Below, one piece after another: positions 12,516-32,715 of a stretch of 64,000 nucleotides of DNA. Origin of the DNA: an uncultured virus (IMG/VR IMGVR_UViG_3300018878_000142). Taxonomy: Duplodnaviria > Heunggongvirae > Uroviricota > Caudoviricetes. The stretch lies in the IMG/VR virus record IMGVR_UViG_3300018878_000142; one strand, written 5' to 3'. The notes beneath the pieces are model-generated. The model saw only the letters and a list, made by a program, of their open reading frames with translations. It searched no databases and was not told the DNA's origin. Numbering within the stretch: the stretch's first letter is position 1; each line of letters begins with the position of its first letter. The position numbers were made by a program, and so were the translations under genes.

Positions 12516-12625
12516 ATTAAAAGAACATAGACGCTTTAATATAGTATAATCAGCTCTAAATGCGCGCAAGAGTTTATTATTCTGTATAATAAAGCAAATA
12601 CAAAAATTTAAGGAGAATAAAAATC

Positions 12626-13929
12626 ATGGCAGGTAATAATTCTATACAACTTCTGCGTGGTAGTTCAACTGCTAGAAAAGCTAGCACTGAAAAATTGCTC
12701 TCCGGTCAACCTTTCTACGAAACAGATACAAATTTGTTTTATGTAGGGGGGGGGGCAACTTAAGCTCTGCTACACCTATTAAGGTTAGCACTCTCACAAT
12801 CTAGAGAAATGGTACAACTGTTGGTACCTTTAATGGTTAGACAGCTCAAACTATTAATATCTAGGATACTGATACTAACACAGACTTAAAAACAGCATCA
12901 GGAAATACTTCAAGCAAAATCTACTTAATTGGTGCTACTAGCCAATCTAGTTCTGGTCAAACAACATACTCTCATGATACAGCATATGTTGGAACAGATG
13001 GTTGTTTATACAGTAATAGTAGTAAGGTTGCTGTAAGAACAGAAGTACCATATATTTTAAAAGATAACTCTTATTTAGTTATTTATAAAAACGATTCTTC
13101 TACATTAGAGTCAAATTGTATATATACAAATTATCCATCATACACAATAACTTTTAATGCGAATGGTGGCAGCTGTTCAACAACATCGAGTAAGACATTT
13201 AGAGGAAAATTATCTAGCTTACCTACACCCACTATGAGTGGTGGTACATTCTTAGGTTGGGGCACGTCATCTTCTGCAACTAGCTATGTAAGCTCTAGCA
13301 AAGTTTATAGCTCTAACACAACACTTTATGCTATTTGGAAAATTGATAGTACATCAAGTGGATCAGGTAACGATTATGAAGGTACTTATCAGTTAATAGA
13401 TGATGAAAGTCCACAAAACGTGTTAGCTACTGATGATTATGTTATCATAGCCGGCACCACATCATCTGACAGTATGTTATATTTTATGGGTAATGATTTT
13501 TCTGGTAATTATCCATATAACTATTCTTTAGATCCTTCTGACCAACTAACTTTAGATGGCTCTAGCAGTATAGCTATATTTAAAGTTACTTATAACGATG
13601 GTTAGATAGCTTTACAACTTGCAAATGGTGAGTATTCAGGACAATATTTAGCAAATACTTCGAATAAATATTTAAAACTTCAATCAGATGAATGTTTTTG
13701 GGATATCTCAGAACATGGGTCTCCAGCGTACGGCGGTTTGCAAGTTGGTTCTAATAGAACCAAGCTCATATGTCAGGACACAGGCAACCTTATAGTAGTT
13801 CCTACTAGTATGCAAGCTAATAGCAACAACAGCTATAGTACAACATTCTCGTGTTATACTAATCCAAGTAGTAGTTATCTTGATACGACTCAAATATTCA
13901 GGCTGATCACAGATTCTAACCAACCATAA
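12626..13929 (+). CDS. fibre/adhesin-like protein (Mtd-N-like N-terminus, InlB-B/Listeria-Bacteroides repeat); out of frame at G10 tract, 4 in-frame TAG
   Basis: MAGNNSIQLLRG...GQPFYETDTNLFYVG; -1 shift at 12746-12755 joins a frame with YTITFNANGG...PTPT...FLGW...TLYAIWK running to TAA 13929. Confidence 0.75.
12746..12755 (+). repeat. G10 homopolymer
   Basis: ATGTA-G10-CAACT in an AT-rich genome. Confidence 0.95.
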
Positions 13930-13937
13930 GAAAATAA

Positions 13938-14007
13938 AAAAGATCTCAAGATTTATTTCTTGAGATCTTTTCTTTTAGTTGATTTTATCCTCAAAATATT
14001 ATATAAT
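13938..14007 (+). promoter_or_regulatory. terminator followed by sigma70-like promoter
   Basis: AAAGATCTCAAG...CTTGAGATCTTT hairpin; TTGATT (13979) -17bp- TATAAT (14002). Confidence 0.8.
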
Positions 14008-14293
14008 ATAAATATAAAAGAAGAGGTAAAAAAAAAATTATGTTGAAAATTGAACAAATCGAAAAAGACTTACTTTGGGTAATTAAACTTACAGATGGTA
14101 CTAGAAAAGTTGGAACCTATGATACGGTTAAAGCTTTTTTAGATAGAAATGCTAATATGTTCGATGATATCGATCTGTGTTGTAAGCAACCTGAACATCT
14201 TCAAGAATTTGTTGATAACTGGCTTAAGCATGATTCTGATAATAAATGTTTTACTATTTTAGAAGAATACTATAAAATCTATCTTAAAAATAG

Positions 14294-14322
14294 TTGACTT
14301 TTAACCCAAAATATACTATAAT
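14294..14322 (+). promoter_or_regulatory. sigma70-like promoter
   Basis: TTGACT -17bp- TATAAT. Confidence 0.8.
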
Positions 14323-16616
14323 TATAATATAAATAAGAGAGGTAATTTTATTATGACTATGCAAGAACTTGAACTTAAATATGAGCAAGCAAAAATAACT
14401 GAAAAAGAATTAGCTGAAAAAGCTTGCGAAGCTAGAATTGCTTTAAGTGATAAATTCCAGAAAACGTTAGAGCAATTCTTTGTAGAAGATGATTGCATTA
14501 TCAGTTATTCTGACGTAAGAATAAGTTATCATGATGCAACTAAAGCAGAATTTGGTTGTGATATTGGCTTTAAAGACCCTGAAAATACTGATAGATTGGA
14601 TTTTGGATCTAGCTTTTATTTTGAGTTCGAAGATAGTAAGATCAAAATAAATACTGGAAGTATTGGTGCTTATAAACTTTCTGATATATATCAACTTAAA
14701 AGAAACAATACTATATACCATCTTACTTGCGTTAATGGCGAAAAACTTGAAAAAGCTTTGTGTGATATTGATTGTAGCGAATATGTTGAAGCTACACATA
14801 AATTTTGGGAAGCTTCTACACAAACTAGAGATGCATATAAAGCTATTGAAAACGCTAGAGTAAAAAATATTTCTGAAAGTCTTAATGTGGGTAAGATTTA
14901 TAAGCATTCTAACGATAGAAGTATGTCTTTCTACAAACCTTGCCTTTTTACCTTTCAAACAGACCTTATTAAGATTACAAAAATCACAAACAAATCTGTT
15001 GAGGTTGAAATTACTAATACTGACACTCAAAGATATCCTGGAATCAAGTATGAAAAAGTCAGAAAAAGTAGCTTAATTGATGATATTTTAGCAGGAAAGT
15101 TGTTAGAGGTAGAATAATGGAAAATACTAAATCATCTCTTATTGCAGCATTCTTTGAAAAGCAACCTATTGGTGATTGCACTGATAATAAATTTGAGTTT
15201 GGAAATTTACATAGAAAAACTATCGAATGTTCATTTTGTATAAATAATAAATGTCATTATCGAGGTGACTGCGATCGGAGGAAATCATATGAAAAATAAA
15301 GAAGACTTTAATCAAGAAACCGCTGAGCGTGATCTTCTTGAAAAAGATATTTCAGAAAGTATCGAATATGATGACTGGCGAGCTAGAGAGTATGGTGAAC
15401 TCGATGTTGATACGCACTGGACTGCTAAGCATCTCTATGATAAAGGTTGGCGAAATAAATGTTTAGAAACACCTAACACGCCGAATACTTTTATTATTAA
15501 GGATACTGCTTATATTACATGCAAATGCTGCAATCACGCCATCAGAACTTATGATTTGAGCATATACATGCCTGATGCAGAAGTTATTAAACAATCTATC
15601 GAGGTAAATAAAGATAACATTTATCCTTATTATTGCGAAAATTGTGGTGTAAAATTAAAGTAAATCTAGAGAAAAATTATGGAAGCAAACTTAAAAAATA
15701 ATTACTTCCCAAACTATGAGTGTGGTGAGTGTGTTCCACATCTTGCTTATTTGTATGATCACATAAGCAGAGATGACTTGATTAAAGATAACTGTATAAA
15801 ATGTTTTTTATATAAAAAAGATATAAAAGTTTTAGATGAAAATCTGTATACATATAAGAATATATTTATAGAAAAAGTAGATTTAACTTCGCAAATAGTA
15901 TCAGGTTATGGTTTCAAGGTAAAAAATAGAGAAACTATACACTTTAATATAACGAGCGCTTGCGATGAAATAGATGAGGAAATACAAAATGTTTAATTTT
16001 TGGAGTCAATTAGAAGAAGCTTTAACCGACGCACTCAGAAATGGTATGGTTAATGAGGATAGTAATGCACTAATTACTTTCGCGAGCATTTCTATTCCTA
16101 TCTGGGCAGCAAAATCGATTTTAGATGATCACAAAGATGAGGAAGAACATTTATCAGCACTTTTACAGCATATAGATATGCTAGAAGATTACAACAGACT
16201 TCTCAGAAAAGAAAATGAGGAATTGAAAGCTGATGCGTTGGAATAATGATCACCATGAAAAGATTTTAATGGCTAAACGCGAAAAGAAGCGTATAGAAAA
16301 GCTGTATAAAGAAAAATATCCGCAATATGATACATCAGTGCAGGATCTTGCGCAAGTAGATAAAAACTCTACAGTAACAAAATTTAAACAAATATGACAA
16401 ATAGAGAATACTTAAACACAATAGATGTATGCGATGCTACTATAATTATCATACTTAAAAATACTGAGATTGAGAGTAAAATAAAACAAAGTATTATAGG
16501 AAGCAACGTAAGAAACAAATTGTGTGAAAAATATGGGGTAGATCCACATGATGGGGATCAATACTCAAAATTACAAAAAGCTATGTTAAAAGTGTGGTTA
16601 GCAGAGGAATGTATAA

Positions 16617-16961
16617 ATGTTATTAAGTAAAGAAAGTTTTGTTAAAACAATTAATTTCATGAAAGAAAGAAATGCTAAAATGGAATAGTTAAATAAGCTT
16701 TTCACCGAAGAATTTGAAGATTCTATTTTCTTTCCTTATTTTAAGTACGAAGCTGAAATGGGTAGAGTGTTGAAAGAAATTTTCAATGATACAGAAGAAT
16801 GGATAGATTATTTTTGCTATGAGCGCAATTTTGGTGCTGACTTGAAACTGGGTGATGTTAAATATGCAGATGGTACGCCTATACCAATGAGCACGCCTGA
16901 AGAGCTTTATGATTTTCTTATTATAAATATGAAAGAAAAATCAGAAGAAATTGCTGATTAA
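16617..16961 (+). CDS. hypothetical protein (1 in-frame TAG)
   Basis: ATG 16617 with GAGG RBS reads through TAG into ORF 16758..16961. Confidence 0.65.
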
Positions 16962-17070
16962 CATATTTATCTAAATATTTATGTTTTACCTATAGAGGGT
17001 AATAAAATTATTACAAACAAACACTTAAACATTATATTTCATGTGTTTTGTCTTTCATACTTCTCTTCCG

Positions 17071-17133
17071 CCTCGAAATCTTTTTGGTTTCGAGGTATTT
17101 TTAGTTGATTTATTCCATAAAATATATTATAAT
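17071..17133 (+). promoter_or_regulatory. terminator plus sigma70-like promoter
   Basis: CCTCGAAA...TTTCGAGG hairpin; TTGATT (17105) -17bp- TATAAT (17128). Confidence 0.8.
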
Positions 17134-17164
17134 ATATATGTAAATAAAAGATAGAGGTGCTGTT

Positions 17165-17968
17165 ATGGCGAAAGTAGAATTTATTGAAAAGCGAATCGAA
17201 GGTTGCAAGAAAAATCTTGAAAAAGCTGAAAAGAAACTTGCACGAATTCTTAAAGCAGAAGAAAGTAATTATGAGGAAAACAATCCTTATTACTACTCAG
17301 ACTATGATAAGCGGGTTACTTTGAGAGATATCGAAGATCTTAAAAAGAATCTTGAAAAATATGAGCAAGATTTAGCTATTGCAACCGAAAAAGAAAATAG
17401 CAGAAATGTTCAGATTATTATTGACTTCTTGCAGAATTGGAAAGAAAAAGTATTTGCTGAGTATAAAAGAGATTTAACAGCAGCATATAATATGAGAGCA
17501 GAAGTAAGAAAACTTTATCCAGCTTATTATGTAAGCAAAGATAGCGCTGAGTATCATGAGTGGGAAGAGTTAAGTAAAGAATATAATGAAAGAATTAAGG
17601 GTAAATATTCTTACGAATTGCTCATGAATCCCTGGACTAAAAAAGAAGAAAAGCATAAAGTTAAAGTAGAAGATGGGATTTGGGAATATCTTATAAACTA
17701 TCTCAGTTATAATACCTTAGAAGATGCGCTTGAAAGATTGGATAAAGATTTAACTGATGAGAAGAACAGAAAATATGATTTCATTATCGAGCGCACAAAT
17801 AAGTTTGTAGGTGAAATAGAAGATGTTTCTGATTTGAGAGTTTCTTCTAATGGCGAACTTAATGGTTTCATTATTGGGACTAGAGGAAAAGCAAAAGTTA
17901 CTACTATCATTGCAAATGGTCCTATCAGAATTGCTCATTTCAGAGTTTTGGTTAAAGAGGTAAAATAA
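17165..17968 (+). CDS. phage hypothetical coiled-coil protein
   Basis: 267-aa ORF directly after promoter with GAGGTG RBS. Confidence 0.7.
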   Translation: MAKVEFIEKRIEGCKKNLEKAEKKLARILKAEESNYEENNPYYYSDYDKRVTLRDIEDLKKNLEKYEQDLAIATEKENSRNVQIIIDFLQNWKEKVFAEYKRDLTAAYNMRAEVRKLYPAYYVSKDSAEYHEWEELSKEYNERIKGKYSYELLMNPWTKKEEKHKVKVEDGIWEYLINYLSYNTLEDALERLDKDLTDEKNRKYDFIIERTNKFVGEIEDVSDLRVSSNGELNGFIIGTRGKAKVTTIIANGPIRIAHFRVLVKEVK

Positions 17969-18637
17969 CATGTTGAAAACTAGAAATTATGTCAGAGGTA
18001 AACAAATTCTCACAGTATCAGATCTCAAAAATGCAACTAATGGATTGTTTGTTAAAGATAAAACGATGACGGAATTTGGCTGTATCGATAATCCAGTAAA
18101 TAGAGAATTTTCATATTTAGGCGATGATAAGGCTATTGAAAAATGGTTAAATAGCGCTTTAAAGACTCATGACTTATATGAGAGAATAATTGAAAATAGA
18201 GAAGTCGTATTTTCTGATAAGATTGATAATATGCTCGATGATATGTTAGCATCATTTGCGTATGAATACTCTGATACGGAATATCATAATGAAGAAATTA
18301 TGGAAAAATTTCTTCGTGAACTTAAAGAAAAATTTAAAATTGAGGTGAGAGATGAGTAATGAAAATTTTTTCCTTATGCTGGTAGAAAAAGAAATGATTG
18401 AGTTATGCAATAACAAGCCTAAAATTGAAAATTCACTTAGAATTTATACTTTCTCATATCACAATGCATATGATGTGGCTATATATGGTACAGTTAAATT
18501 TAACCAAATCGGTGGTTTTATAGAATTTATTGAGGAGGGACGATCTGATGATTAAATACATACTATTAGGACTTATATGCTCTAGCTTCGGCTTTTTTAT
18601 GGGTAGATGGTCTAAAAATTAAAAGAGGTGATAAAAT

Positions 18638-18985
18638 ATGACTGAGTTATCTATGAGAGAAATTAGCGAAATATTTAAAGAATACGCTGAAGAAGTTAAT
18701 ATTCCTGTTCGAGATATTATGTTTAGTACTGATGGTAAAAATACTATCACCATCTATACTGATATTCCAGGGCTCTTAATTGGTAAAGCCGGCTCTACTA
18801 TTGAAAAGTATAAGAAAAAATTAAATGCGTTAGTTACTGAGCACAATAATATTATTAAGCAAATAAACAGCAAGCCAGATAGAGAGTATACTATTCCTGA
18901 GATGCCAGAAGTTAAGTTTAATATAATCGAAGTAACTAGAGCTAATTTTTGGTTAAATTATAATTCAATGGGGGAATGTTTCTGA
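18638..18985 (+). CDS. KH-domain protein resembling the ribosomal protein uS3 N-terminal domain
   Basis: ITIYTDIPGLLIGKAGSTIEKYKKKL resembles the S3 KH-II xPGxxIGKxG motif. Confidence 0.65.
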   Translation: MTELSMREISEIFKEYAEEVNIPVRDIMFSTDGKNTITIYTDIPGLLIGKAGSTIEKYKKKLNALVTEHNNIIKQINSKPDREYTIPEMPEVKFNIIEVTRANFWLNYNSMGECF

Positions 18986-20181
18986 TGAAAGATATCTTTA
19001 GATTTTGCATTAGTGTTGCTATAACTATTTTAAATGTTATCTGGATAGTTCATGGAGCTGTAGTTATACATAATTCTTTTGTAGAAGGTAAACAGGTAGC
19101 TTTATGGGAAGTTATTGTTATGAGCTTAGCTTTTGGTTGGTTAGGTTATTTAGCTATAAGCGAGTTTATTTGGGCTATTAAAAATATTTCTTTTCAGAGA
19201 GATAGATATGAAAACAGAGTAGCAAAATATTTAGTTAAAGCTAGACATTATACTAGATTTAAAGCTTACCGACTCATCGATGCTAATAAAGGAATAATCA
19301 GTATGTGTATTGAAGATAACTTATCTCATAAAATTTGTGGTAGAATTTTAGATGGAGTATTTAACGTTGAAAAAGAATAAATTAATAATAGGTATCATTC
19401 TCATGATTGTTGGTTTCGCGGTTATTGCGTTAAACATCGCTTTAATGGTAAAAAATTCTGGTGTAAATATTAAATTAGATGATGCTTTTTTCTATGTTAT
19501 TATAACAATAGCTGGTTGGTGTTTTATCAAAACAGGCTTCTTTATGATTTTAGAAGCGTTTGTTACCAGTGAGCGAGTGTATAAGATTGCTTTAAAGGAA
19601 ACGTTCAATAAATATAATACTAATATGTATGATTACATGACCGATGAGATGATCAAATATTGCGCAGAGCATTGCTGCAACACAGAACATGTTTTTTATT
19701 TAGTAACTAATTCTAAATACGAACCTGAGTTTAATTTGTGAGGCGCTAGCATGTTAACAGAAAAAGATTTAGAAGAGATAGCTAGAGTAAAGAAAAATGT
19801 AGAAGCATGTATGGATAATGAAAATTGTAAAAATTGCTCATACAAACAATCTACAAGCAGCAGTGAGAGTTGCAAATCTAAACTACTAGCTGATTGCTTT
19901 AACGTTATGAGAAAGTATCAAATAAGCTATGATAAATTATTATCACAGAATAAAAGATTACATAAAAGGGTGATGGAGGATTTAGGTATATGATTTGCGT
20001 AGAAGGCTATAAAGCATTTAGAGGTATTATGAAAATTACCCCAACTAACCCAAAATTTCCTGCAGAAGAAATAGAAGCTGACTGGCTTTATAAACCGGAA
20101 TATGATTGTTGGTATGGGAAGGGTTGGTCTTATCCAGCAGCTATTTGTATAGTAATTTTAGATAAAACAGCTTAAAAACAG

Positions 20182-20210
20182 TTGATCTTTCTATAAATTT
20201 ATTATATAAT
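20182..20210 (+). promoter_or_regulatory. sigma70-like promoter
   Basis: TTGATC -17bp- TATAAT. Confidence 0.8.
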
Positions 20211-20838
20211 ATTATTGTAATAAATAGTAAGAAGGTTAAATTATGGCTGATTATTTTAAGGATGATTTTGGAAATTACGAAGTTACTTTCACTTATAAGG
20301 AGCCAGATAATGGGAAAACTTATGAGTTTAGAAAATATGTAAATAGTAAGAAAATTAAAGCTTTAGGTGGTATGTATGCTATCTACTGCGAAGAAGATAA
20401 TAAAATTATTTTTAGAAAATCAGAATATTTGCGGGATAGAAGTTACAAAAAGTTTTCAGAAGATCAATGCGAGGATTTCATTTATGTAAATAAAGCTACG
20501 GATGATGAAAATCCTTCTGCTTATGAGTTGTTAGAACAATTAAATAAAAGAATAAAGTCAGAATATTATTCACTTCCTTCTAAAATTGATAAAACAAAAT
20601 TAACAGAAGAAGAATTTCAAACTTTGATAGGACTGATAAAGAAAAGCTTACCATCGAGGTGAAACTATGAGATACGATAAATATAGAATTCTTAAGCAAG
20701 GTAAAGACTTATGGGTGATTATTGAGCCTAGCAGACAGCTTACGTTGTATGATGAAAATAATAAGTTATTGCATTTTACTACAAAAGAATCTGCTTTAAA
20801 ATATTGTGCAGATAATAATCTAGAAGTAGGTGAGGAAT

Positions 20839-22137
20839 ATGTTTGAGGAATTAATTAAAGAATATACTTGCTTAAAAACAGAAGCAGAATTTTCTGTTAG
20901 ATTTGCTAACATGTTACAAAGTTTGACCTGCGCATTAAATCAAAATAATAAGAATGATGTAAGTTATTATACTAGAAGAAGCAAAGAGCTTTTGGAAGGT
21001 ACTAGAGTTCCTATCCAGGTTCCTATGTTTGAAATCAGTAATACGCATCCTGATTTTGCATGGCTTACAAATGCTCTCGAATCTGTTATTAGTTCTGAAA
21101 TGTGGCACCCTATGGTTAGTGCTAACGTAGGTTATGAGTATAGAAAGATTGTAAATCATTGGTATGATTTAACCTGTGATGATTCTGCACCCAGAAGAAA
21201 AGCATTAGGTGATTTCTCTATGAGAGGTCAAGAATGTAGACACAGTGCTTATAAATCAAGCGCTGGTTGGTTGTTATCTCACGTAAACACTGCTACTGTT
21301 CCTGCAATCCCTTATCTCGAACAATATTATAATGCAGATTGTACTAAAGAAGAAGTTGGTTTTGGATCACCTAGTACTGAGCATTCTGTTATGTGCTCAA
21401 ACTTCGCAGTAGATGGTGATGAAATCACAATGGTTAAACGCCTTCTTACTGAAAAATATCCTAACACTTCTTTCTCAATGGTTTCAGATAGTTATGATTA
21501 TTGGAATTTAGTTTGCAATATTCTTCCTAAATGCAGAAAAGAAATAGAAGAACATAATGGATGCTTACTAGTTAGAGGTGATAGCGGTGATCCAGTAGAT
21601 GTTGTAACTAAAACAGTATTTCAATTAGGTGAGCTTTTTGGTTATAGCGTAAATAGTAAAGGCTATAAAGTTCTCAATCCTAAAGTGAAAGCTATTTATG
21701 GCGATTCTATTACAGTGACTAGAGCTGCTCAAATCTATGAAATTTTATATAAAAATGGTTGGGCTGCTAGCAATGTAGTATTAGGTGTTGGTAGTTTCTC
21801 AATGCAATGTCTTGAGGGTGAAAATGGTAAATTAAATCCTTTTACTAGAGACACTTTTGGTATTGCTATTAAAGCAACGCATGTGCTTATGAAAGATGGA
21901 ACTGAACATTTTGTATTTAAGAATCCTAAAGAAGGTGGATTTAAAAAGTCACATAAAGGTTGCTGTTTAGTTATTAATGATGGTGGCGAACTTATTTGCA
22001 ATGATGAACATAAATTTGTAGAAACATACTCAGTGTTAAACGAAATGAAAGTAGTGTTTAAAGATGGTAAGATGGTTAAAGATCAGAGCTTGAAAGAAAT
22101 TAGAGACAGATTGTGGGACAATAAATTCTATGAGTAA
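20839..22137 (+). CDS. nicotinamide phosphoribosyltransferase-family protein (Nampt/NadV or Namat), N-terminus atypical
   Basis: EGTRVP..VPMFEISNTHPDFAWL, DFSMRG, STEHSVM, VSDSYD, RGDSGDP, IYGDSIT, GVGSF, RDTFGIAIKAT. Confidence 0.85.
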   Translation: MFEELIKEYTCLKTEAEFSVRFANMLQSLTCALNQNNKNDVSYYTRRSKELLEGTRVPIQVPMFEISNTHPDFAWLTNALESVISSEMWHPMVSANVGYEYRKIVNHWYDLTCDDSAPRRKALGDFSMRGQECRHSAYKSSAGWLLSHVNTATVPAIPYLEQYYNADCTKEEVGFGSPSTEHSVMCSNFAVDGDEITMVKRLLTEKYPNTSFSMVSDSYDYWNLVCNILPKCRKEIEEHNGCLLVRGDSGDPVDVVTKTVFQLGELFGYSVNSKGYKVLNPKVKAIYGDSITVTRAAQIYEILYKNGWAASNVVLGVGSFSMQCLEGENGKLNPFTRDTFGIAIKATHVLMKDGTEHFVFKNPKEGGFKKSHKGCCLVINDGGELICNDEHKFVETYSVLNEMKVVFKDGKMVKDQSLKEIRDRLWDNKFYE

Positions 22138-23041
22138 TTACAGAATAACATATAAAAACTGTTTCGATGTACCAAATAAAAACAAACATATTTACTCTAA
22201 AGCTATTCTTGAAAAAGCTTTCGCACAATTAACAGAAAAACTTCCTGTTATGTATGTAGCTGATGAAAAGCAATTTCTAGAGAATAGTTTTGAAATAATT
22301 GGCGCAGTAACAGATACAACTTTCACTGATAATGATCTTATTATGGAAGTTAGCATTTGTAATGCAGATTTATATCCTGAAAGTTATCCATTATGCTTAT
22401 GTGGTTGGGATGAGGTTGAGTATGAGCCATCAGAAGGTGCCTTTTGCGCAACTGAAAATTATAGATTAAATTGTTTATATCCATGGCCAGATTGCGCTTT
22501 TGATTATGAGTTGGAGAAAATCTAAATGTATAAGGTAGAATTATCTATAGAAGAAATTTGCTTAATTAAATCAGCTTTAACTGACTTAAATCAAAAATTG
22601 GAAGATAAGAAAATAACAGCAGTGCATTTTTATACTGGCAAAAAAGATTTAAAGAAAAGCTTACAACATATAGATGAGACTAGGTTAGATATTTTTACTG
22701 TTTTAGGTAAATTAAATAATGTAACTATAAAAACACAATAAAATTTGCTAAAAGTTTAAATATTATTGATATTAAAATATAAATAAAAATAATTGGAAGA
22801 GGAATAAAAATGGATACATTATCAATAAATTATATGGAACTAGATCCAAATAAAGTTTATCATATCGCTGTTGAAGTTAGAGATATGAGTGTAAAGGATA
22901 CAGAAGACCATTTAACTAGAGTTAGAGATTTATTTAGTAACTATGGAATTAAAGCAATTTATTCTGCGATGACCTACGGTGTACATTCAGTAACTATTAC
23001 TGATTTACCTATGTCTATAAAGAATAACAATTAAACAAATT

Positions 23042-23332
23042 ATGGCATTTCTTTTAATATATTTACTAGTTGCATTATTTACTATGGTTATTTCATTAGG
23101 TAAAGTGGTTTAGCAAGAAGATGAGGATTTTATATTGAATTGTACTCCATCGATGCTCTACGATAACTACCGCAGTTTAAATATGTTTGCTTGTGTTACA
23201 TTATGGGTAATTATTTTACTGATAAATCCATTATGGCAAATTTTATTCAATGGTGGTACTTTTCTAATTTATAATATTGGTAAATTTTTTAAATTTATTT
23301 TTACAATTGGGAGAAAAAATGATTACTTATAA
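23042..23332 (+). CDS. small membrane protein (1 in-frame TAG)
   Basis: ATG 23042 reads through TAG into ORF 23135..23332; hydrophobic segments. Confidence 0.55.
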
Positions 23333-23798
23333 AACTGGAAATTTATTAGAAGCAGATGTTGACTATATTGTACATCAGGTAAATTGTCAAGGCGCGATGG
23401 GTTCAGGTATAGCTAAGCAAATTAGAAATAAATGGCCTCATGTTTACGATGAGTATAAGTGGTTTTTAAATTGCAGTAAAAATAGCTGGAAAATACCTGC
23501 TTTAGGAAGAATCCAAATTATTCTAGAAGATCCAGATAAAGAAGTTGGTAAATGTAGAAATATAGTAAATTTCTTCTCTCAGTATCACTATTTACCTAGA
23601 AATGTAGTTAACACAGATTATGATGCTTTCAGAAGTTGCTGCGAAGAGCTGAGAACAGTTGCACTCAAACATCAAACAATCGGTTTTCCTTATAAAATTG
23701 GGTGTGGTTTAGCAGGTGGTGATTGGACAATTGTAGAGAATATTATCGCCACTGTTTTCGAAGATTATAATGTGGAGATTTATAAATATGAAGCTTGA
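23319..23798 (+). CDS. macro domain protein (ADP-ribose processing)
   Basis: GNLL, HQVNCQGAMGSGIA, PYKIGCGLAGGDW. Confidence 0.9.
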   Translation: MITYKTGNLLEADVDYIVHQVNCQGAMGSGIAKQIRNKWPHVYDEYKWFLNCSKNSWKIPALGRIQIILEDPDKEVGKCRNIVNFFSQYHYLPRNVVNTDYDAFRSCCEELRTVALKHQTIGFPYKIGCGLAGGDWTIVENIIATVFEDYNVEIYKYEA

Positions 23799-23987
23799 TC
23801 TTTGTAAGAAAATATTTCTAACTATACTTTTCATTTTCTTTGGTGTACTAGGTATTTGGTATACCATTAAAACAGCGAACCCTGCAGCTTTAATCTTAGA
23901 CGCTATAATGAGCTTTATAATTGGTGTAGCGTGTGGTGTAGGAATACATAGCATATGGTTTCTTAAATAAATAATAGAGGTATATAA

Positions 23988-24788
23988 ATGGACGCTAAAA
24001 GAGTAGCAAATAATATAAATAACTGGTTAGAAGATTATAGAGTTATAACTGATTGTAAGGGTGTTGTATTAGGCTTAAGCGGAGGTAAAGATAGTACCGT
24101 AGTTGCTATGCTTGCTAAAAAGCAATGGGGTGATGATGTTTTCGCTATTATTATGCCTAATGGTAATCAAGCTGATATCGATGATGCTATCGAAATTGCA
24201 GAAACATTAAATATTGATTATAGAATTGTAAATATTGAAACTGTTTTCAATAATTTATTATTTAATATCGAGACTGTGGTTCGCAAATCAGACATTACTG
24301 GCGAAAAAGATTGGTTTGAAAATTGCCCTAAAATTTCAGATAAAGCTAAAACAAACATTCCACCTAGACTTCGCATGACTATTCTTTATGCTGTAGCTCA
24401 AACATTGGGTTATAGAGTTATTGGAACAGGAAATGCTAGCGAAAGATGCATTGGTTGGTTTACAAAATATGGTGATGGGGGTTGTGATTTAAATCCTATT
24501 GCGCATCTCACTTGTTCAGAAGTAATTGAGTTAGGTACATATCTCGCTCAAGAGTTTAATTTATCTGATGTATTTATTAAGAAAGTTCCTGCTGATGGTT
24601 TAACAGGTAAGTCCGATGAGGATAATTTCGGTTTCACATATAAGCAGTTAGATGCTTTCATTAGGGAAGGTGATTGTGGGGATGAAACTCTCAACAAAAA
24701 GATGAAGAAAATGCATGATATGAGCGAACATAAATTGAGAGTTCCTGTAACATATACTGATACATGGTTTCTAAATAGAAGAGATTAA
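23988..24788 (+). CDS. nadE: NH3-dependent NAD+ synthetase
   Basis: GLSGGKDS PP-loop, NIPPRLRMTILY, GTGNASE, GWFTKYGDG, PADGL...DE. Confidence 0.92.
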   Translation: MDAKRVANNINNWLEDYRVITDCKGVVLGLSGGKDSTVVAMLAKKQWGDDVFAIIMPNGNQADIDDAIEIAETLNIDYRIVNIETVFNNLLFNIETVVRKSDITGEKDWFENCPKISDKAKTNIPPRLRMTILYAVAQTLGYRVIGTGNASERCIGWFTKYGDGGCDLNPIAHLTCSEVIELGTYLAQEFNLSDVFIKKVPADGLTGKSDEDNFGFTYKQLDAFIREGDCGDETLNKKMKKMHDMSEHKLRVPVTYTDTWFLNRRD

Positions 24789-25168
24789 ATATGATTTATT
24801 TACATTTTGGTTTAGCTTTTTGGATAGTTTTTGGTTTATACTTCTTCTATATAATAATAGATTTAGAATATTATCATGATGACTTGATAAAAGCTGTTGT
24901 AGCATTTTATAAAAGTTTAAGACGACGCATTAGCTCATTTAATATATTTGGAAAGATTTTTTCTTATATTATAAGTACAGCAGTAGCTTTGCCTGCGATA
25001 TTATTGCATTATATACTCTTTATACCTTTTGTATTAATTATCTGGTTTTTACTCAATATATTTTTCTGGTTAGCTACATTAAAATTAAAGAAAGATAAAA
25101 CAACAAAATGGACATCTACAGATAAAACAGAATAATATTAAAAATCATTAAAATTATAAGTTATCTAG

Positions 25169-25197
25169 TTGATTTCTTATAATTTTTATTATATAAT
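25169..25197 (+). promoter_or_regulatory. sigma70-like promoter
   Basis: TTGATT -17bp- TATAAT. Confidence 0.8.
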
Positions 25198-25227
25198 ATT
25201 AATATAAGAAATATGTGAGGTAAAGAT

Positions 25228-25614
25228 ATGTTTTCTATTAACGATAACCACACACTTTTAGAAATGGCCTTAGTTGGAACAACTAGTGATAATATTGAAA
25301 TACGAGTGTATGGAAAAGAAGGAAACATTCCACATTTTCACTTTGATCATATACAATCTAAACGAAAGGGTTGTATAAGAATCGATGTTGCAGAATATTT
25401 TGATTATGGTGATAAATATAAAGATAGATTAACTAATAAAGAAATAAAAAATTTAATCTTATGGTTAAAATCTGATAAAACAGTTTTCAAAAAATTTGGT
25501 AGCAATATAACTATTTACGATTATATTAAAATATTATGGGATGATAATAATCCGAATTATCCCTTGAAAGAAGATTATAAAATTCCTGATTATGAGCAGT
25601 TGAAAAATTTTTAA
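25228..25614 (+). CDS. PHFH-motif (DUF4160-like) protein
   Basis: IRVYGKEGNIPHFHF. Confidence 0.45.
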   Translation: MFSINDNHTLLEMALVGTTSDNIEIRVYGKEGNIPHFHFDHIQSKRKGCIRIDVAEYFDYGDKYKDRLTNKEIKNLILWLKSDKTVFKKFGSNITIYDYIKILWDDNNPNYPLKEDYKIPDYEQLKNF

Positions 25615-25631
25615 GAGAGGTATTAATTAAA

Positions 25632-26558
25632 ATGGCTAAGTGGGTCGGATATAAAAATGGAAATTATAATGTGCACATTGACCTTGAAACAGGTACAAAA
25701 GTTAGAGAAAATAATTTAGATTTTTTCGAATGTGATACTGTAGAAAGCATGGATGTTAAAATCACTAACTGCTGTGATGTTGGTTGCGCTATGTGCCATG
25801 AGAATAGTACACCTGATGGTAAGCATGCAGATATTTTGAGTCCATCTTTTTTAGATAAATTGCACCCTTATTGTGAGTTAGCTATCGGTGGTGGTAATCC
25901 TCTTGAACACCCTGATCTGCTTAAGTTTTTGGAAAAATGTAAAGAAAGAAAACATATTCCTTCTATGACTGTTAATCAGGTGCATTTTGAAAAGAATTTT
26001 GAGTATGTAAAGAATCTCTGCGAAAATAAGCTTATCTATGGCTTAGGTATTTCTTTGCAAAAAGTAACCGATTCTTTTATTGAAAAAGTAAAGCAAATTC
26101 CTACTGCTGTTATCCATGTTATAAATGGTATTGTAACAAAAGAGCAGCTCGAGGCTTTAGCTAACAATAACATTAAAGTTTTAGTTTTAGGTTATAAAGT
26201 ATTTAGACGTGGTGAGAAACTTTATGAAACTGCAAGCGAAAGCATTGAGAAAAAGAAGTCAATGCTCAAAGAACTTCTTCCTAACATTATTAAGGAAGGC
26301 TGGTTTAAGGTAATTAGCTTCGATAACCTTGCATTAAAGCAACTTGATGTTAGGTCTCATATGACCGAAGAGGAATGGAATCGTTTCTATATGGGTGCAG
26401 ATTCTGAAGAAGAGGATTATAATAATATGAGTGCAACTTTTTTTGTAGATTTAGTTGAAAGAAAATTTGCTATCAATAGTTGTTCAAATAACAGGTATGA
26501 TTTGAAAGATACTGCAGAAGAAATGCTTAAATTTTTATATGAAAAATTACATAAATAA
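25632..26558 (+). CDS. radical SAM protein
   Basis: CDVGCAMC (CxxxCxxC) followed by AIGGGNPL. Confidence 0.9.
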   Translation: MAKWVGYKNGNYNVHIDLETGTKVRENNLDFFECDTVESMDVKITNCCDVGCAMCHENSTPDGKHADILSPSFLDKLHPYCELAIGGGNPLEHPDLLKFLEKCKERKHIPSMTVNQVHFEKNFEYVKNLCENKLIYGLGISLQKVTDSFIEKVKQIPTAVIHVINGIVTKEQLEALANNNIKVLVLGYKVFRRGEKLYETASESIEKKKSMLKELLPNIIKEGWFKVISFDNLALKQLDVRSHMTEEEWNRFYMGADSEEEDYNNMSATFFVDLVERKFAINSCSNNRYDLKDTAEEMLKFLYEKLHK

Positions 26559-26604
26559 CATGCTAAATTAAGTAGTGCAACATTATTTAAGGGAAGAAGT
26601 AAAG

Positions 26605-27657
26605 ATGTTAAAGAAACTACTTGATGAAAATTTATTAGAGAGGAATGAATTCTATGATGCATATATTGATTTAATAGCTCAAAATAAAAATCAGAAGAGA
26701 ATAAAATATAAAACGGAATAGCATCATATAATTCCTAGATGTTATTTTAAAAGGCATCCATAGAAATTACCTGTGGATAATTCAAAAGAGAATTTAATTA
26801 ATTTATTACATAAAAATCATTTATTAGCACATTATTACCTAGCTAAATGTGCTACTGGTTGGTTAAAATTTTATCTTATTTAGGCATTTACTCAACTTCA
26901 GCAGCGTCTCAACAAAAATATAAGCTGTGACATATTTAATATAATGGATGATTATTAGGTCTTAATTGAAGAAGGCTTAAAACTTAAATCAACCTTATAT
27001 AAAGGCAGAAAATAGTCTGAAGAATCAAAAATTAAAAGAATAGCAACTAGGCTTGAACGTTACCCAGATGGTGTTAGAACTAATACAGGCAAAAAGAGAT
27101 TAATAAAAGATGGTATAAGAATTTTTGTTTTAAGGGACTAGGTAGAAAAATATCTGAAAGATGGTTGGAAATTTGATAGACAACCTAGATCAGAAGAAAC
27201 AAAACAAAAAATACGTGAAGCAAAAAGAGTTAATAAAAAGGTTGCGTGGAATAAGGGTTTGACAAAAGAAATAGATGCCAGAGTTGCTAAAAACGCAGAA
27301 TCAACATCGAGATCTATCTAGAGAATAAAGACTGAGAATCCAGATTTATGGAAAAAACATACCGATAATATAGGAAAACGTAAAAGAAACTGTGTTGTTG
27401 TTACAAATGGAATAGAAGATCGCATGATAAAGTTAGATTTACTAGATGAGTTTTTAGCTAATGGATATGTGAGAGGTAGAACATTTAAAAAGACTCCTGA
27501 GTAGAACAGAAAATCTGCTGAAAAGCGTAAAGGATTAAAGCCTGGAAATTTTGGTAAAATCTGTATATATAATACTACTACTGGACATAGAACGTATATA
27601 TTTGAAGAAGAATTACCTAAATATATTAATTTAGGTTATCATAAAGGAAAAAAGTAA
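26605..27657 (+). CDS. HNH homing endonuclease with NUMOD3-like repeats (8 in-frame TAG)
   Basis: 350 aa with TAG=Q: TEQHHIIPRC...DNSKENLINL..KNHLLAH; KGRKQSEESK, RSEETKQKIREA; absent from ORF track. Confidence 0.85.
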
Positions 27658-27658
27658 A

Positions 27659-27733
27659 AATAGCTGCAGCAACGATCGTTATGATCTAATGGATACTGCA
27701 GAAGAAATGCTTGCATTCTTAAAGAGTGCCTAA
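27659..27733 (+). pseudogene. displaced duplicate 3' end of the radical SAM gene
   Basis: NSCSNDRYDLMDTAEEMLAFLKSA* versus NSCSNNRYDLKDTAEEMLKFLYEKLHK* at 26475-26558. Confidence 0.85.
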
Positions 27734-27761
27734 TATTGATTACACACTTCTTTTATTTACA

Positions 27762-27833
27762 GACCTGGATTTGAAATTATTTTTCATTTCCAGGTCATTT
27801 TTAGTTGATCTTTTTCTCGATTTATTATATAAT
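27762..27833 (+). promoter_or_regulatory. terminator plus sigma70-like promoter
   Basis: GACCTGGA...TCCAGGTC hairpin + T tract; TTGATC (27805) -17bp- TATAAT (27828). Confidence 0.75.
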
Positions 27834-27869
27834 ATATGTGTAGAAAATAAATGGAGGTGATATGTAATT

Positions 27870-28133
27870 ATGAAAAAGCTTTTAGTAAGTATTATTGCGC
27901 TAACATCTGTGTTCGCATTTTCAGGTTGCAATGAAAGTTTGGGTATGGGTAATTATAGCTTCAAAAGAGCTCATATTTATCTCGGCGGAGAAAAAGGTGT
28001 TTGCGTAGAAGTAGAAAGCTGGCACGATAATGAGGTTGGTGTTGAGCTTAAATTAAAAGGTGGGCACAGTATCTATTGCAGCGAAGGTACATATATGCTG
28101 GTAGAAGATTATTGTCCTATTTGTGGTAAATAA
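27870..28133 (+). CDS. small lipoprotein
   Basis: MKK + hydrophobic stretch + FSGC lipobox-like motif. Confidence 0.6.
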   Translation: MKKLLVSIIALTSVFAFSGCNESLGMGNYSFKRAHIYLGGEKGVCVEVESWHDNEVGVELKLKGGHSIYCSEGTYMLVEDYCPICGK

Positions 28134-28191
28134 AAAAAAAATCCATAATTGTATAAAATAATAAAAATAAATCGGAGGTAATAATATTATT

Positions 28192-28800
28192 ATGGTAAAT
28201 GAAATGTTTAATGGTATGTTTGGTAAAGTAGGTAGCGGTATGTGCAAGCTCACGACGAGCGGTAGAATTGCGGTAAATTGCGGCGGTACATACAAATCTT
28301 ATAATCCGAAGAATGGTAAGCTCACTAACTGCGGTAATTTTGTCCTCCCTGTTGGTGATGATTTCTTCTTTGTAATTCCTACTAATAAGGTAGAAGTAGG
28401 TGATATTATTTTGGTAAATAAGAAACCTCGCTTTGTAAAGGAAGTAGGTAAGAATCAAATCACGGTTATCAATTACGAAAACTCTACAATTGAAACTATT
28501 CTTCCTGAAAGACATATGTTTATGGGTAACACGTACTTCTATGGTAAGATTGTATCTATGTTTGGTGATTCGCTTAAAGGTAAAGGCGGCGCAAATAACA
28601 TGATGAAGTACATGATGATGTCTGAAATGATGAAAGGTAATAATGGTATGAGCGGTATGGGTTCAATGCTTCCTTTCATGATGATGTCTGGCGGTAATTT
28701 CGAAAATATGTTCAGCGGAATTTTTGATGATGCATCTGATGATGAAGTGGAAGATGTTGAAGTTGTAGAAGAAGATCAGGCAGTGGAGGATGACGAATAA
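28192..28800 (+). CDS. Met-rich hypothetical protein, first gene of vWA-PurA-like cluster
   Basis: MMKYMMMSEMM; stop overlaps the vWA start. Confidence 0.7.
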   Translation: MVNEMFNGMFGKVGSGMCKLTTSGRIAVNCGGTYKSYNPKNGKLTNCGNFVLPVGDDFFFVIPTNKVEVGDIILVNKKPRFVKEVGKNQITVINYENSTIETILPERHMFMGNTYFYGKIVSMFGDSLKGKGGANNMMKYMMMSEMMKGNNGMSGMGSMLPFMMMSGGNFENMFSGIFDDASDDEVEDVEVVEEDQAVEDDE

Positions 28801-29687
28801 TGGGCGGCGGAAGTTGGACTACTCAAGCTTATTGTAATTATTCTGCGAGTAGAGGTAGGACAGTTTCTACGTCTTATGTTAATGGCGTAGCTACAGCTTC
28901 GCTTGCTAATTCTGCTTATTCTACTCAAGAATTTTATAAAGCAAGCAGACTTGATGAAGCGCTTAAGCCTCATAAAGTTATGAGAGAATGCTGTGATACA
29001 GAAGAGCATCCTGAAACTATTCCTGTTATTTTTGGTCTTGATGTAACAGGCTCAATGGGAAGCTCTCTCGAATTGGTTGCTAAAAAGCTCAATGAAATTA
29101 TGACTAGAATCTATCAAGAAGTAAAAGATGTTGAGTTTATGATTATGGGTATTGGTGATTTGTATTGCGATGATGCACCTATCCAAATCTCTCAATTTGA
29201 GTCAGATATTCGTATCGCTGAGCAACTTGAAAAGGTTTACTTCGAAAGAGGTGGTGGCGGTAATGGGTATGAGTCTTATACTGCAGCATGGTATATGGGC
29301 TCGAGACATTGTAAGCTCGATTGCTGGAAGCGTGGTAAGAAAGGTATTATTATCACTCTCGGCGACGAACCTCTCAATCCTTATCTTCCTAGAGAAGCTC
29401 TTAATAGAGCTACTGGTGATAGTGTAGAAGCAGATGTTGAAACTAAAGATCTTTATCCGGAAGTAACTGAAAAATTCGATGTTTATCATATTGTAGTAAC
29501 AGATGGTGGATCAAGCTATAGCTGGCATAAGCAAGGAATCAAAAATAGCTGGCCAGAATACCTTGATGAAGAACATCTCAAGTATGCTAAGATTGATAAT
29601 CTTGCTGAAATGGTTTCTGAGATTATTACTGGACATGCTAGTTCCGGTACGACTATTAATGGAGAACTTAATACAATTTCTTGGTAA
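28800..29687 (+). CDS. vWA domain protein
   Basis: MIDAS DVTGSMG, GIGD, GGGGNGYESY, TLGDE. Confidence 0.85.
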   Translation: MGGGSWTTQAYCNYSASRGRTVSTSYVNGVATASLANSAYSTQEFYKASRLDEALKPHKVMRECCDTEEHPETIPVIFGLDVTGSMGSSLELVAKKLNEIMTRIYQEVKDVEFMIMGIGDLYCDDAPIQISQFESDIRIAEQLEKVYFERGGGGNGYESYTAAWYMGSRHCKLDCWKRGKKGIIITLGDEPLNPYLPREALNRATGDSVEADVETKDLYPEVTEKFDVYHIVVTDGGSSYSWHKQGIKNSWPEYLDEEHLKYAKIDNLAEMVSEIITGHASSGTTINGELNTISW

Positions 29688-29693
29688 AAATAT

Positions 29694-30866
29694 ATGAAAT
29701 GTAAAATTGTTGTTGGTGCGAATTATGGTGATGAAGGTAAGGGCTTGGTAACACATGTCCTTACCTCACAATATAAAAAGCAAAATGAAAGGGTATTAAA
29801 CATCTTATACAACGGCGGTTGTCAACGTGGTCATACCGTCGAATACAAAAATGGTGCTAAACATGTTTTTAAGCATTTTGGTAGTGGTACATTAGATGGC
29901 GCAGACACATATTTCAATAAAGATTTTATATTAAATCCGACACAATTCATGACTGAGTACTCACAATTAGCTTCTTTAGATAAAGAATATTTTAACTCAG
30001 AAATGACTAAATGTTTCTGTCATAGAGATTGTAGAGTTTCTACCCCTTATGATGCACTTTTAAATCAGATGCTCGAACTTAATAGAGATGAAAGCAGACA
30101 TGGTTCGTGCGGTTGGGGTATTTTTGAAACTAGAAAAAGATATGAAAGCTCTGAGTATGACTGGTCGCTTTTAAAAATGCGTTGTTCTACTAACCAACAA
30201 CTTTTTATGTACCTAGAAAAAATTGCTAAAGAATATCTTCCAGAAAAGATTGAAGAGTATGGTATAAAAGATTCTGTAATTGAAAAATACAGAAACATTT
30301 GTATAAGCTCTGATTTAATTAACGCTTACATTTCTGATTTTAGAGCTATGTGTAAGTTAGTAGATATAATTTATTTTGGCGATTTAATTAAAAAATATGA
30401 CGCTGTTATTTATGAGGGTGGACAGGGTTTAGCTTTAAGCGAAACAAATATTAGCGATTTTCCATATTTAACACCTAGTAAAACTGGCTCAGAAGTACCT
30501 ATCGAAGAGATTAAACCTTACACAAATGATATCGAAGTTATTTATGTAAGCAGAACATATTTCACTAGACATGGTGCTGGTCCCTTAGCTTTTGAATGTA
30601 ATAAAGATAAGCTCAATCCAGAAATTGAAGATTTAACAAATTTTCCTAATGATTTTCAAAAATCACTGCGATTCGCTCCATTTGTAGATAAGGATCTCAT
30701 AGACAGAATCTTGAAAGATGGTTGTACATATAAAAGAAGCTTATATTTAACTCATAATAATTATATTAGACAGTCGGATACTATATTAGAAATCCTATCT
30801 GGTTATTTTAGTAAAATTATGTTGAGTTTCGATAAGTACGGGGTAATAAATGAGTGTTTTTCTTAA
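29694..30866 (+). CDS. adenylosuccinate synthetase-like protein
   Basis: GANYGDEGKG, GHT, HFGSG, HGSCGWGI, EGGQG, TPSKTG, TRHGAGP. Confidence 0.85.
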   Translation: MKCKIVVGANYGDEGKGLVTHVLTSQYKKQNERVLNILYNGGCQRGHTVEYKNGAKHVFKHFGSGTLDGADTYFNKDFILNPTQFMTEYSQLASLDKEYFNSEMTKCFCHRDCRVSTPYDALLNQMLELNRDESRHGSCGWGIFETRKRYESSEYDWSLLKMRCSTNQQLFMYLEKIAKEYLPEKIEEYGIKDSVIEKYRNICISSDLINAYISDFRAMCKLVDIIYFGDLIKKYDAVIYEGGQGLALSETNISDFPYLTPSKTGSEVPIEEIKPYTNDIEVIYVSRTYFTRHGAGPLAFECNKDKLNPEIEDLTNFPNDFQKSLRFAPFVDKDLIDRILKDGCTYKRSLYLTHNNYIRQSDTILEILSGYFSKIMLSFDKYGVINECFS

Positions 30867-31172
30867 ATCAGATTTAAATATAACTTATGTTTCACAAGAA
30901 TATTGTGATAATTTTGAAAAAGTTACTAAAGGTTTAGCTAATGCTATTGATTGCCCAGAATTAAAACCCAGTAAAAAGTTTCTAGAGAAATGCTTTAATT
31001 TATTGTTAGAGATGGATTCAGCTATTTTTGAAGCAGAATCTGTCATAAACAAACAGAGAGAAAAATTATCTGATTTCGATTGCTTAGATGAAGATGAAGA
31101 AGAGAATATCTGGGATGAAGATAATGAAGATTTTGAAGAATCAGACTTCGATATAGATGATGAGTATGAAGA

Positions 31173-31619
31173 ATGAAACGTAAACCTATCTCAAAAGAAG
31201 TGAGAGAGTTAGTTTATCACAAATTTGGAAAACACTGCGCTTACTGTGGGTGTTATCTAGAAAATATAAAAGACATGCAAGTAGATCATTTTGCACCTGT
31301 ATATTTGTTTGGAGATAATATTGATATAAAAAATTTATATCCAGCCTGCCGTAGCTGTAACAAATATAAAGATACTTTCACAATAGAAAAATTTAGAGAT
31401 CAATTAAGTAAAATTCCAGAAAGATTATCAAGAGATGTAACTACATACAACATCGCAAAAAGATATGGAATGATTCAAGAAACAAAAAAGCCTATCAAAT
31501 TTTTCTATGAAGAATACACTAGCGTATTAGACTTTGATGACCTCGCAAATAAAATATTAAATAAAAATATGGCTGATATAAAAACAGGTAATGAGGAAGA
31601 AGTCAGTGAAAAATTATAA
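31173..31619 (+). CDS. HNH endonuclease
   Basis: CAYCG...MQVDHFAP...NLYPACRSCN. Confidence 0.85.
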   Translation: MKRKPISKEVRELVYHKFGKHCAYCGCYLENIKDMQVDHFAPVYLFGDNIDIKNLYPACRSCNKYKDTFTIEKFRDQLSKIPERLSRDVTTYNIAKRYGMIQETKKPIKFFYEEYTSVLDFDDLANKILNKNMADIKTGNEEEVSEKL

Positions 31620-32252
31620 TTTAACAGACATAAAAACAATTTGTGAAAGAGCAGTAAGCGAAGGAAAATGTGGAAGTAATAGCTGTCCGATTCAAGAATT
31701 TTGTTATAAACATTTTAAAGATATTCCTAAAGATTGGGATAATATAGAAAAAATATCAGAGCCTGGAATATATAGTTGGTTTGTAGAAGAAGATGATGGA
31801 TATAATTATGGCGAAGCAGGTCATGCAGAAAATTTAGAAGAAGCATTCTATAAAGCAACAGAGTATAGTCCAAAACAAATAAAAACTATTACAATAAACA
31901 AACAAAATTAAAAGTAACATATTTGTTAATAAAAGATATTATTGTAAAGAAAACATATAGAGAATTGTAGGGAAACAACCTTAAAACAAAAATCTCTGAA
32001 AAAATAATCAAACAATTACGCTAAATTAAGTGAATTGGTCAAAAAATCCATTAATAAATTTTCCTGGTCTAGTCAAGTATCGGCTAGACCTTTTCTGTAT
32101 AAAAATGAGAACATAGAATAATTTAGTGAGAAAATATAGCTAAATTAAACGAACACAGACGTTTTCAATTATATATAAAATTAATGGGTGCGCAACATTA
32201 ATATAAAAATATAAGAAGAAAACAAATAAAAAATTTCAAGGAGTTACACAAA

Positions 32253-32715
32253 ATGGCAGGTAACAACGCAATTCAGTTCCTTAGAGGAACAACATCTGCA
32301 ATAAGCAGCAGCACAGCTACACTCCTCGAAGGCCAACCTCTATATGACTACGAAACAGGTTTGTTTTACGTAGGTAAGAAGGGGGGGGGCAGTTAATTAG
32401 ACAGCTCCCATAAAAGCCGGGAGTGTGAAAAACAGTCTTACAATTAAGACAAATGGAACAACAGCAGCTACTTTCGATGGTAGCTCAGCAGCAAGTGTGA
32501 ATATAACACCATCATCGATTGGTGCTGCTTCCTCATCACATTCTCACTCAAATTACGCTACTATTTCTTATGTTGACGAGAAACTCAGTAATGCTGAAAT
32601 GACTTGTGAATTTGATTTTTCTGGTAATACAATCACAATTACACCACCAGAACGAGCTACAGCTACAACTAGTTGGTCTATAAACAGTGATGGCAGATTG
32701 GTTATTGAGGTGTAA
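32253..32715 (+). CDS. fibre-like protein paralogous to 12626; out of frame at G9 tract, 1 in-frame TAG
   Basis: MAGNNAIQFLRG...GQPLYDYETGLFYVGKK-G9; +1 shift joins ORF 32425..32715 (LTIKTNGTTAATFDGSSAASVNI). Confidence 0.75.
32381..32389 (+). repeat. G9 homopolymer
   Basis: AAGAA-G9-CAGTT. Confidence 0.95.

Follow-up and report, generated by a model that had tools for sequence, protein, structure and literature searches.

Why should two related genes of one phage, both predicted to encode virion fibres, break off at a run of G residues in the same place? The question arises from a 64,000-nucleotide stretch of DNA (the window) from IMG/VR record IMGVR_UViG_3300018878_000142, an uncultured virus of the Caudoviricetes whose record runs to 75,277 bases. 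An earlier note on the window had proposed that the poly-G tracts of the two genes, here called A and B, switch them ON and OFF by slipped-strand changes in tract length. Our analysis favours a particular form of that proposal, in which the tracts are probably slipped-strand contingency loci whose ON lengths flank a G9-G10 optimum, so that OFF is the default.

Gene A opens at an ATG at 12626 and closes at a TAA at 12761-63, and gene B opens at an ATG at 32253 and closes at a TAA at 32394-96; in both, the TAA lies two codons past the codon that holds the last G. When tract lengths from 7 to 13 were tried, the frames of A and B opened only at 8 or 11 G, as the earlier note had claimed, with full-length products of about 434 amino acids (A) and about 153 amino acids (B). 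The note's tract positions and its statement that the window has no other long G runs also held: G10 at 12746-12755 and G9 at 32381-32389 are the only G runs of at least 6 in the 75,277-base record, in which no C run of at least 6 was found either. Across 153 kilobases (kb), made up of this record and 78 kb of a longer assembly of the same phage (G001), four runs measure 9-10 and none falls in the 6-8 range, and geometric extrapolation gives an expectation of 0.009 runs of at least 9. Each tract ends an Mtd_N-like domain of about 43 amino acids, beyond which the C-termini of the two genes differ, again as first described: A has one repeat of the InlB-B type and B a frame of 108 codons. The parts of the two genes are as follows.

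12610..12615, plus strand: ribosome-binding site of gene A, called from sequence.
12626..12763, plus strand: gene A as assembled, a 45-amino-acid open reading frame (ORF) with the Mtd_N-like domain alone; model at a predicted local distance difference test score (pLDDT) of 83, fold neighbours HylP1/HylP2 and Mtd.
12746..12755, plus strand: G10 tract of A, in frame at 8 or 11 G, bridged without a gap in public runs X1, X2 and X4.
12757..13929, plus strand: downstream frame of A, 390 codons if TAG encodes Gln, covering a predicted fibre shaft, the InlB-B repeat and a putative tip.
13141..13332, plus strand: PF09479 Listeria-Bacteroides (InlB B) repeat in A, E 9.5e-14.
13938..13971, plus strand: terminator-like hairpin closing gene A.
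32066..32090, plus strand: terminator-like hairpin upstream of gene B.
32238..32243, plus strand: ribosome-binding site of gene B, called from sequence.
32253..32396, plus strand: gene B as assembled, a 47-amino-acid ORF with the Mtd_N-like domain alone (PF18454 E 0.0035, under the curated cut-off).
32381..32389, plus strand: G9 tract of B, in frame at 8 or 11 G, bridged without a gap in public run X2.
32389..32715, plus strand: downstream frame of B, 108 codons; short predicted stalk, a module common to other phage fibre-like genes.

The long frames carry a condition that the earlier note had not given, as they are open only if TAG is read as glutamine (four TAG codons in A and one in B). ORF cover of the sequence rises from 0.72 under translation table 11 to 0.88 under table 15, and it is very probable that TAG stands for Gln in this phage. 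TAG use is uneven in window 1-64000, with none in many genes and several in fibre and endonuclease-like genes, and no tRNA genes were found in the 64,000-nucleotide window.

The earlier note had predicted further paralogues with G tracts, and longer assemblies of the same phage supplied them. G001, G002 and G006 represent the same phage as the window record, differing by 2/6,123 bases (window against G001), 0/6,129 (G001 against G002) and 1/4,049 (G002 against G006). Paralogue C (G001:31048), which has two InlB-B repeats, and paralogue E (G002:12413) both carry G10 at the same spot, and a further tract-bearing member occurs in a relative, G004, described below. Paralogues D and H are unbroken and lack a G run, so that the tract stands at the domain end in four of the six close paralogues (A, B, C and E). 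F′ (G002:14604), the gene that follows intact paralogue H, is interrupted in mid-gene by a G9 and would be in frame with 7 or 10 G. All five G runs in about 180 kb of phage sit in predicted fibre-family genes or an adjoining gene. The five intragenic tracts of the family (A, B, C, E and the one in G004) are each 9 or 10 long, in frame at 8/11, and followed by 87-740 open codons.

The identity of the family bears on what such a switch would control. PF18454 (Mtd_N) matched 9 of 15 aligned members at E up to 0.1 (best E 5e-10), and paralogue H passed the curated cut-off (33 bits against 26.3); A itself had no match. For the modelled 45-amino-acid product of A, the nearest solved folds were the streptococcal phage tail-fibre hyaluronidases HylP1/HylP2 and the Bordetella phage protein Mtd (probability 0.99 and 0.84, E 0.15 and 0.56, respectively), fibres in which this domain forms the trimeric N-terminal module. 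A tblastn search with the N-terminus of A matched, weakly (E 0.03), only 4 of 50,697 phage records, namely crAss001, through gp25, and close crAss relatives, through the corresponding protein. The accessible part of PMC10172136 does not name gp25, and that of PMC8825819 holds nothing on an Mtd_N-like domain. The Pfam and fold matches support A and B as predicted virion fibre genes, in which the shared N-terminus would dock at the virion and the switched genes would offer alternative adhesins; by analogy with the matched fibres, family proteins may form trimers and attach to the virion. The resemblance to Mtd, HylP1/HylP2 and crAss001 gp25 lies in this N-terminus of about 43 amino acids, by profile, fold and, weakly, tblastn. 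A and B showed no sign of a hyaluronidase or lectin domain, and their tips are instead an InlB-B repeat plus an unknown domain (A) or possibly a separate gene (B). Prediction of a three-copy complex of the 45-amino-acid product scored 0.02, which counts neither for nor against a trimer; a single-sequence fold of the A downstream frame reached pLDDT 33, PHROGs gave 0 matches for 13 of 13 proteins, and a PDB sequence search with A3 returned spurious matches only. No reverse transcriptase turned up in a general scan of 30 window proteins, which was not a search aimed at diversity-generating retroelements.

Beyond the break, the remainder of A has a shaft module, the single InlB-B repeat and a putative tip, and the downstream module of B recurs in fibre-like genes at four other loci. 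When the shifted frames were aligned with an X at the break, they ran on into the linker sequence seen in 13 intact relatives, which makes each a single broken gene rather than two. Two further genes of the window bear on this family.

32718..33890, plus strand: gene for 390 amino acids, 2 nucleotides past the stop of B; possible separate tip partner.
60161..61534, plus strand: fibre gene of a more distant Mtd_N-like type, intact and free of G runs; shaft module in common with A.

The first of these may supply a separate tip for B; its product is 28% and 16% identical over about 60 amino acids to those of the genes after paralogues E and H, respectively, and has no Pfam or PHROG match. Further intact genes with apparently Mtd_N-like N-termini lie near the structural region at G001:153805, called by profile match, and at G001:157162 and G001:159209, called by eye.

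Outside this phage, the pattern recurs in G004, a complete 233-kb relative in which 17 of 43 compared ORFs match at 38-57% amino-acid identity. It has only two G runs of at least 8, both in a predicted fibre-family context. A G9 at the same spot precedes a 740-codon frame with YadA-head repeats, and a second G9 lies within a short leader ORF (178136-178144), 172 nucleotides upstream of another family member whose start lies inside a predicted structure. Leader ORFs recur in G019, a bin titled uncultured Bacilli that contains five family genes and a contig from a sister phage (23 of 85 ORFs match). Two fibre genes there have homologous leaders with different outcomes: at G10 the leader stop overlaps the fibre ATG, and at G11 the leader stops early. 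Only between these homologues were two tract lengths seen. At the leader-ORF tracts of G019:C63, G019:C2:28289-28299 and G004:178136-178144, the ribosome-binding site lies in a predicted hairpin. At G019:C19:1259-1268 a G10 tract occupies a leader ORF, and the stop of this ORF overlaps the start of a collagen-like fibre gene; a second G10, at G019:C19:17125-17134, lies between a tRNA-like sequence and the ribosome-binding site of the next gene. In the distant relative G007, intergenic G10 tracts lie at 62697-62706 and 68154-68163, one of them directly before a TTGACA...TATAAT promoter.

Other contigs of G019 carry 50 genes for predicted membrane-anchored proteins that share a 16-codon leader and a G run. 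In 21 of them, chosen to include odd lengths, we found 18 tracts of G10 out of frame, two of G9 in frame and one of G8 out of frame; Pfam had no match for the one member scanned. By its sequence pattern, this family looks like a large default-OFF phase-variation bank. Binning of the sister phage with a Bacilli genome points to a Bacilli host, if only as a hint. Three DNA-pattern searches of viral contigs found no in-frame intragenic tract: one gave 10 loci (three of this phage and seven unrelated), another 87 loci, in which the only genes that matched a profile were those of this phage and of G004, and a third 11 loci (six known and five unrelated). The Mtd_N-like domain occurred in one of 12 more distant phage records.

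If the tracts switch, their length might be expected to vary, and the earlier note had set such heterogeneity as a test. Nine public runs hold the A region, as contigs; six do so at 97-99% of words and five were flagged as possible sources, and runs X7-X9 (share 0.06-0.14) were not used. Four runs were compared over 12600-32560, which covers A and B, and four over the E/F′ region. The tract of A was G10 in G000, G001, X1, X2 and X4, with the contig broken in X3, and that of B was G9 in G000, G001 and X2, the sole piece covering B among the matches listed. C had G10 in G001 and G002; E had G10 in G002, G006 and all four runs; and F′ had G9 in G002, G006, X1 and X3. The heterogeneity was thus not seen: every contig gave the same out-of-frame length, though contigs at a depth of about 10 drop minority alleles. 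At that depth the chance of seeing an allele twice is 3.5% for a 3% allele and about 46% for a 15% allele, and contigs drop such variants.

One rival account is a sequencing or assembly artefact in which the true tracts are in frame. Contigs do end in or beside tracts, in X3 for A and in X5, X6 and G001 for F′, and the homopolymer bias of one platform may be common to all the data. Such an error, however, would have to shorten the tract by one G in four genes and, in two others, lengthen it by one (or shorten it by two). Moreover, four records of IMG/VR give the same lengths as Logan contigs from six public runs. A single assembly, G019, resolves G8, G9, G10 and G11, some of them in frame, and even in-frame G8/G11 runs would be far beyond chance. 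We regard an artefact as very improbable. One-way inactivation, by which the genes would be pseudogenes of recent origin, disabled in this population at a mutable Gly-Gly-Gly run, is compatible with our never having seen an ON allele, in samples that are near-identical and possibly from one campaign or lineage. Against it, none of the six downstream frames past intragenic tracts has a second lesion, and the same design recurs in leader ORFs and in a phage at about 50% identity (G004). Of the Gly codons, GGG is used least (39 of 712, or 5.5%), so the tracts were not left by amino-acid need. We consider such inactivation very doubtful, and together assembly error and simple decay are unlikely accounts of the locus.

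Slipped-strand switching would account for the uniform OFF state as follows. Polymerase slippage during replication of the phage DNA would change the tract by one G, in either direction, in a minority of the progeny, and these would then make and display the switched fibre. The ON lengths of 8 and 11 fall on either side of the 9-10 at which G runs would settle, so most genomes would remain OFF and ON variants would revert. Published rates for Campylobacter jejuni allow a rough calculation, as the accessible part of PMC3401435 reports that G8 and G9 mostly gain a base and G11 mostly loses one. With these rates, and an assumed rate for G12 to G11, the stationary distribution is 49% G9, 28% G10, 15% G8 and 3% G11, or 77% at G9/G10 and 17.5% at G8/G11, and an all-OFF consensus is therefore expected. 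Family tracts of 9 or 10 with ON lengths of 8/11 are likewise the pattern expected of unselected contingency loci in a consensus. The intact genes (D, H and window 60161) would supply constitutive fibres, while switched fibres with different tips, which we presume to sit on the virion and bind the host, would form a reserve against alternative or phase-varying host surfaces, with a possible effect on host range.

Several observations argue for this account: the tracts themselves, their frame logic and intact downstream frames; their placement in fibre-family genes and recurrence in G004; the homologous G019 leaders that differ in length and outcome; and the same pattern in the 50-gene surface family of G019, together with the Fletchervirus precedent discussed below. 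Frame logic, further paralogues and fibre identity, the last by Pfam Mtd_N and fold, lend the ON/OFF proposal of the earlier note partial support; its length heterogeneity was not seen in these contigs. Other results weigh against slippage. No indel appeared at any tract among the matches listed (contigs, depth about 4-10), none of the six intragenic tracts was in frame, and the rates used above are borrowed from another organism. The tract is absent at 12 of 12 metagenome loci that carry the domain, and 11 of 12 more distant phage records lack G8, the remaining one having its G8 runs between genes. Predicted hairpins follow three of the six tracts. Finally, the dinucleotide CA stands directly after 9 of the 11 G runs on these phage contigs (window 12756-57 and 32390-91, plus seven that are homologous or analogous), against a background of 4% after G runs of at least 3 in the record itself, and DNA slippage gives no account of it, although four of the nine CA-flanked tracts may share ancestry.

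An extension of the switching account, which we consider rather unlikely, makes OFF an engineered default rather than mere silence. Here the tract would be so positioned that OFF alleles still yield a whole anchor domain of 45-53 amino acids, which would plug, or compete for, shared docking sites, and the fibre bank would track some 50 poly-G-switched surface proteins of a gut Bacilli host in an arms race between contingency loci of phage and host.

The main rival takes up the same contrary observations and keeps the DNA stable: under fixed-ratio recoding, frameshifting by the ribosome or slippage in transcription on the G run would yield full-length fibre as a constant minority beside the short anchor peptide. 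This would fit lengths that are invariant in all data and six of six intragenic tracts out of frame (P 0.09 if frames were random), and the common CA could be a signal. A G run permits tRNA re-pairing in any direction, and tail-assembly genes of different phages shift by -1, -2 or +1, according to the accessible part of PMC5009743. Predicted hairpins lie 3′ of the tracts of B, C and G004 (z -3.3, -3.4 and -5.8), where one of 11 run-less controls reached -3 or lower, the 5th percentile of the background was -2.8, and the window length was picked among three. The hairpin of B is the feature within our window that bears on recoding.

32401..32426, plus strand: predicted RNA hairpin, 11 nucleotides past the tract of B, z -3.3 (60-nucleotide window).

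A programmed ribosomal frameshift would use one direction and a stimulator at a fixed distance, which is not what we found. The shift needed is -1 for A, C, E and F′ but +1 or -2 for B, a mixture within one genome, and +1 or -2 for G004 as well; the z values after A (-1.8), E (-0.7) and F′ (-0.2) point to no significant hairpin there, and hairpin distance varies. Nor would recoding explain homologous leaders with two lengths, or tracts of the same size in intergenic, promoter-like positions in G007. We judge recoding to be unlikely, and prefer default-OFF switching by slippage.

Around A and B, promoter scans gave no score above shuffles, and internal restarts in the downstream frames have no evident ribosome-binding site, the first ATG in A being at 13234. 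Other homopolymers in the window are an A10 at 14028-14037, between a ribosome-binding site and a start codon, an A10 at 28132-28141, at a gene end, and a T9 at 41592-41600. Elsewhere in the window, genes for a NAPRTase-family protein (20806-22137), NAD synthase (23988-24788) and adenylosuccinate synthetase (29694-30866) suggest NAD and purine salvage functions.

Hypermutable poly-G tracts in Fletchervirus receptor-binding protein genes were reportedly described by Sorensen et al. (2021, Cell Rep). Poly-G tract variation in receptor-binding genes of these Campylobacter phages is treated in 10.1101/2025.10.21.683753, PMC11868660, PMC8696038 and PMC10877375, as far as the accessible parts of these sources go. 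From the same parts, the tracts here resemble those of Fletchervirus in falling within the published 7-11 range, in occupying receptor-binding-type genes, several per genome, and in their frameshift ON/OFF logic. They differ in belonging to an unrelated, TAG-recoded large gut phage, in closing a shared Mtd_N-like domain, in having all consensus alleles OFF, with relatives that add leader-ORF tracts, and in being known from sequence alone. The poly-G/C contingency loci of C. jejuni, in the accessible part of PMC3401435, likewise have modal lengths of 9-10 at which single-base steps would switch a gene, but they lie on a bacterial chromosome with measured rates, whereas rates for this phage are borrowed. 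Among lytic phages, T2 agt and T4 rIIA show reversible homopolymer frameshifts in the accessible part of 10.1101/2025.10.21.683753; those tracts are poly-A and ON by default, with a frequency of about 7e-4 for agt. According to the same part, repeats are under-represented in genes of tail-fibre type; here, by contrast, they occur only in predicted fibre-family genes and a neighbour. Programmed frameshifts in tail assembly, including the -2 shift of phage Mu, also yield two N-terminally identical products from one gene (accessible part of PMC5009743), but with one direction per gene and phage, whereas direction and tract length vary here among paralogues.

No report of such switches in this phage family was found in a literature search that left most subscription journals and supplements outside it, and in the literature found, experimental support for poly-G switching of phage receptor-binding genes is limited to Campylobacter phages. 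For the present phage, slippage predicts that raw reads would contain G8 at a few to about 15% and G11 at about 3%. The feature is real and well placed, and taken together the sequence evidence makes it most likely a default-OFF contingency bank in predicted fibre genes. This phage family appears to have recruited poly-G switching repeatedly, within genes and in leader ORFs, with ON lengths set off the mutational optimum. Because of TAG recoding and the frameshift, gene callers miss these genes twice, and the receptor repertoires of such phages are therefore under-counted.

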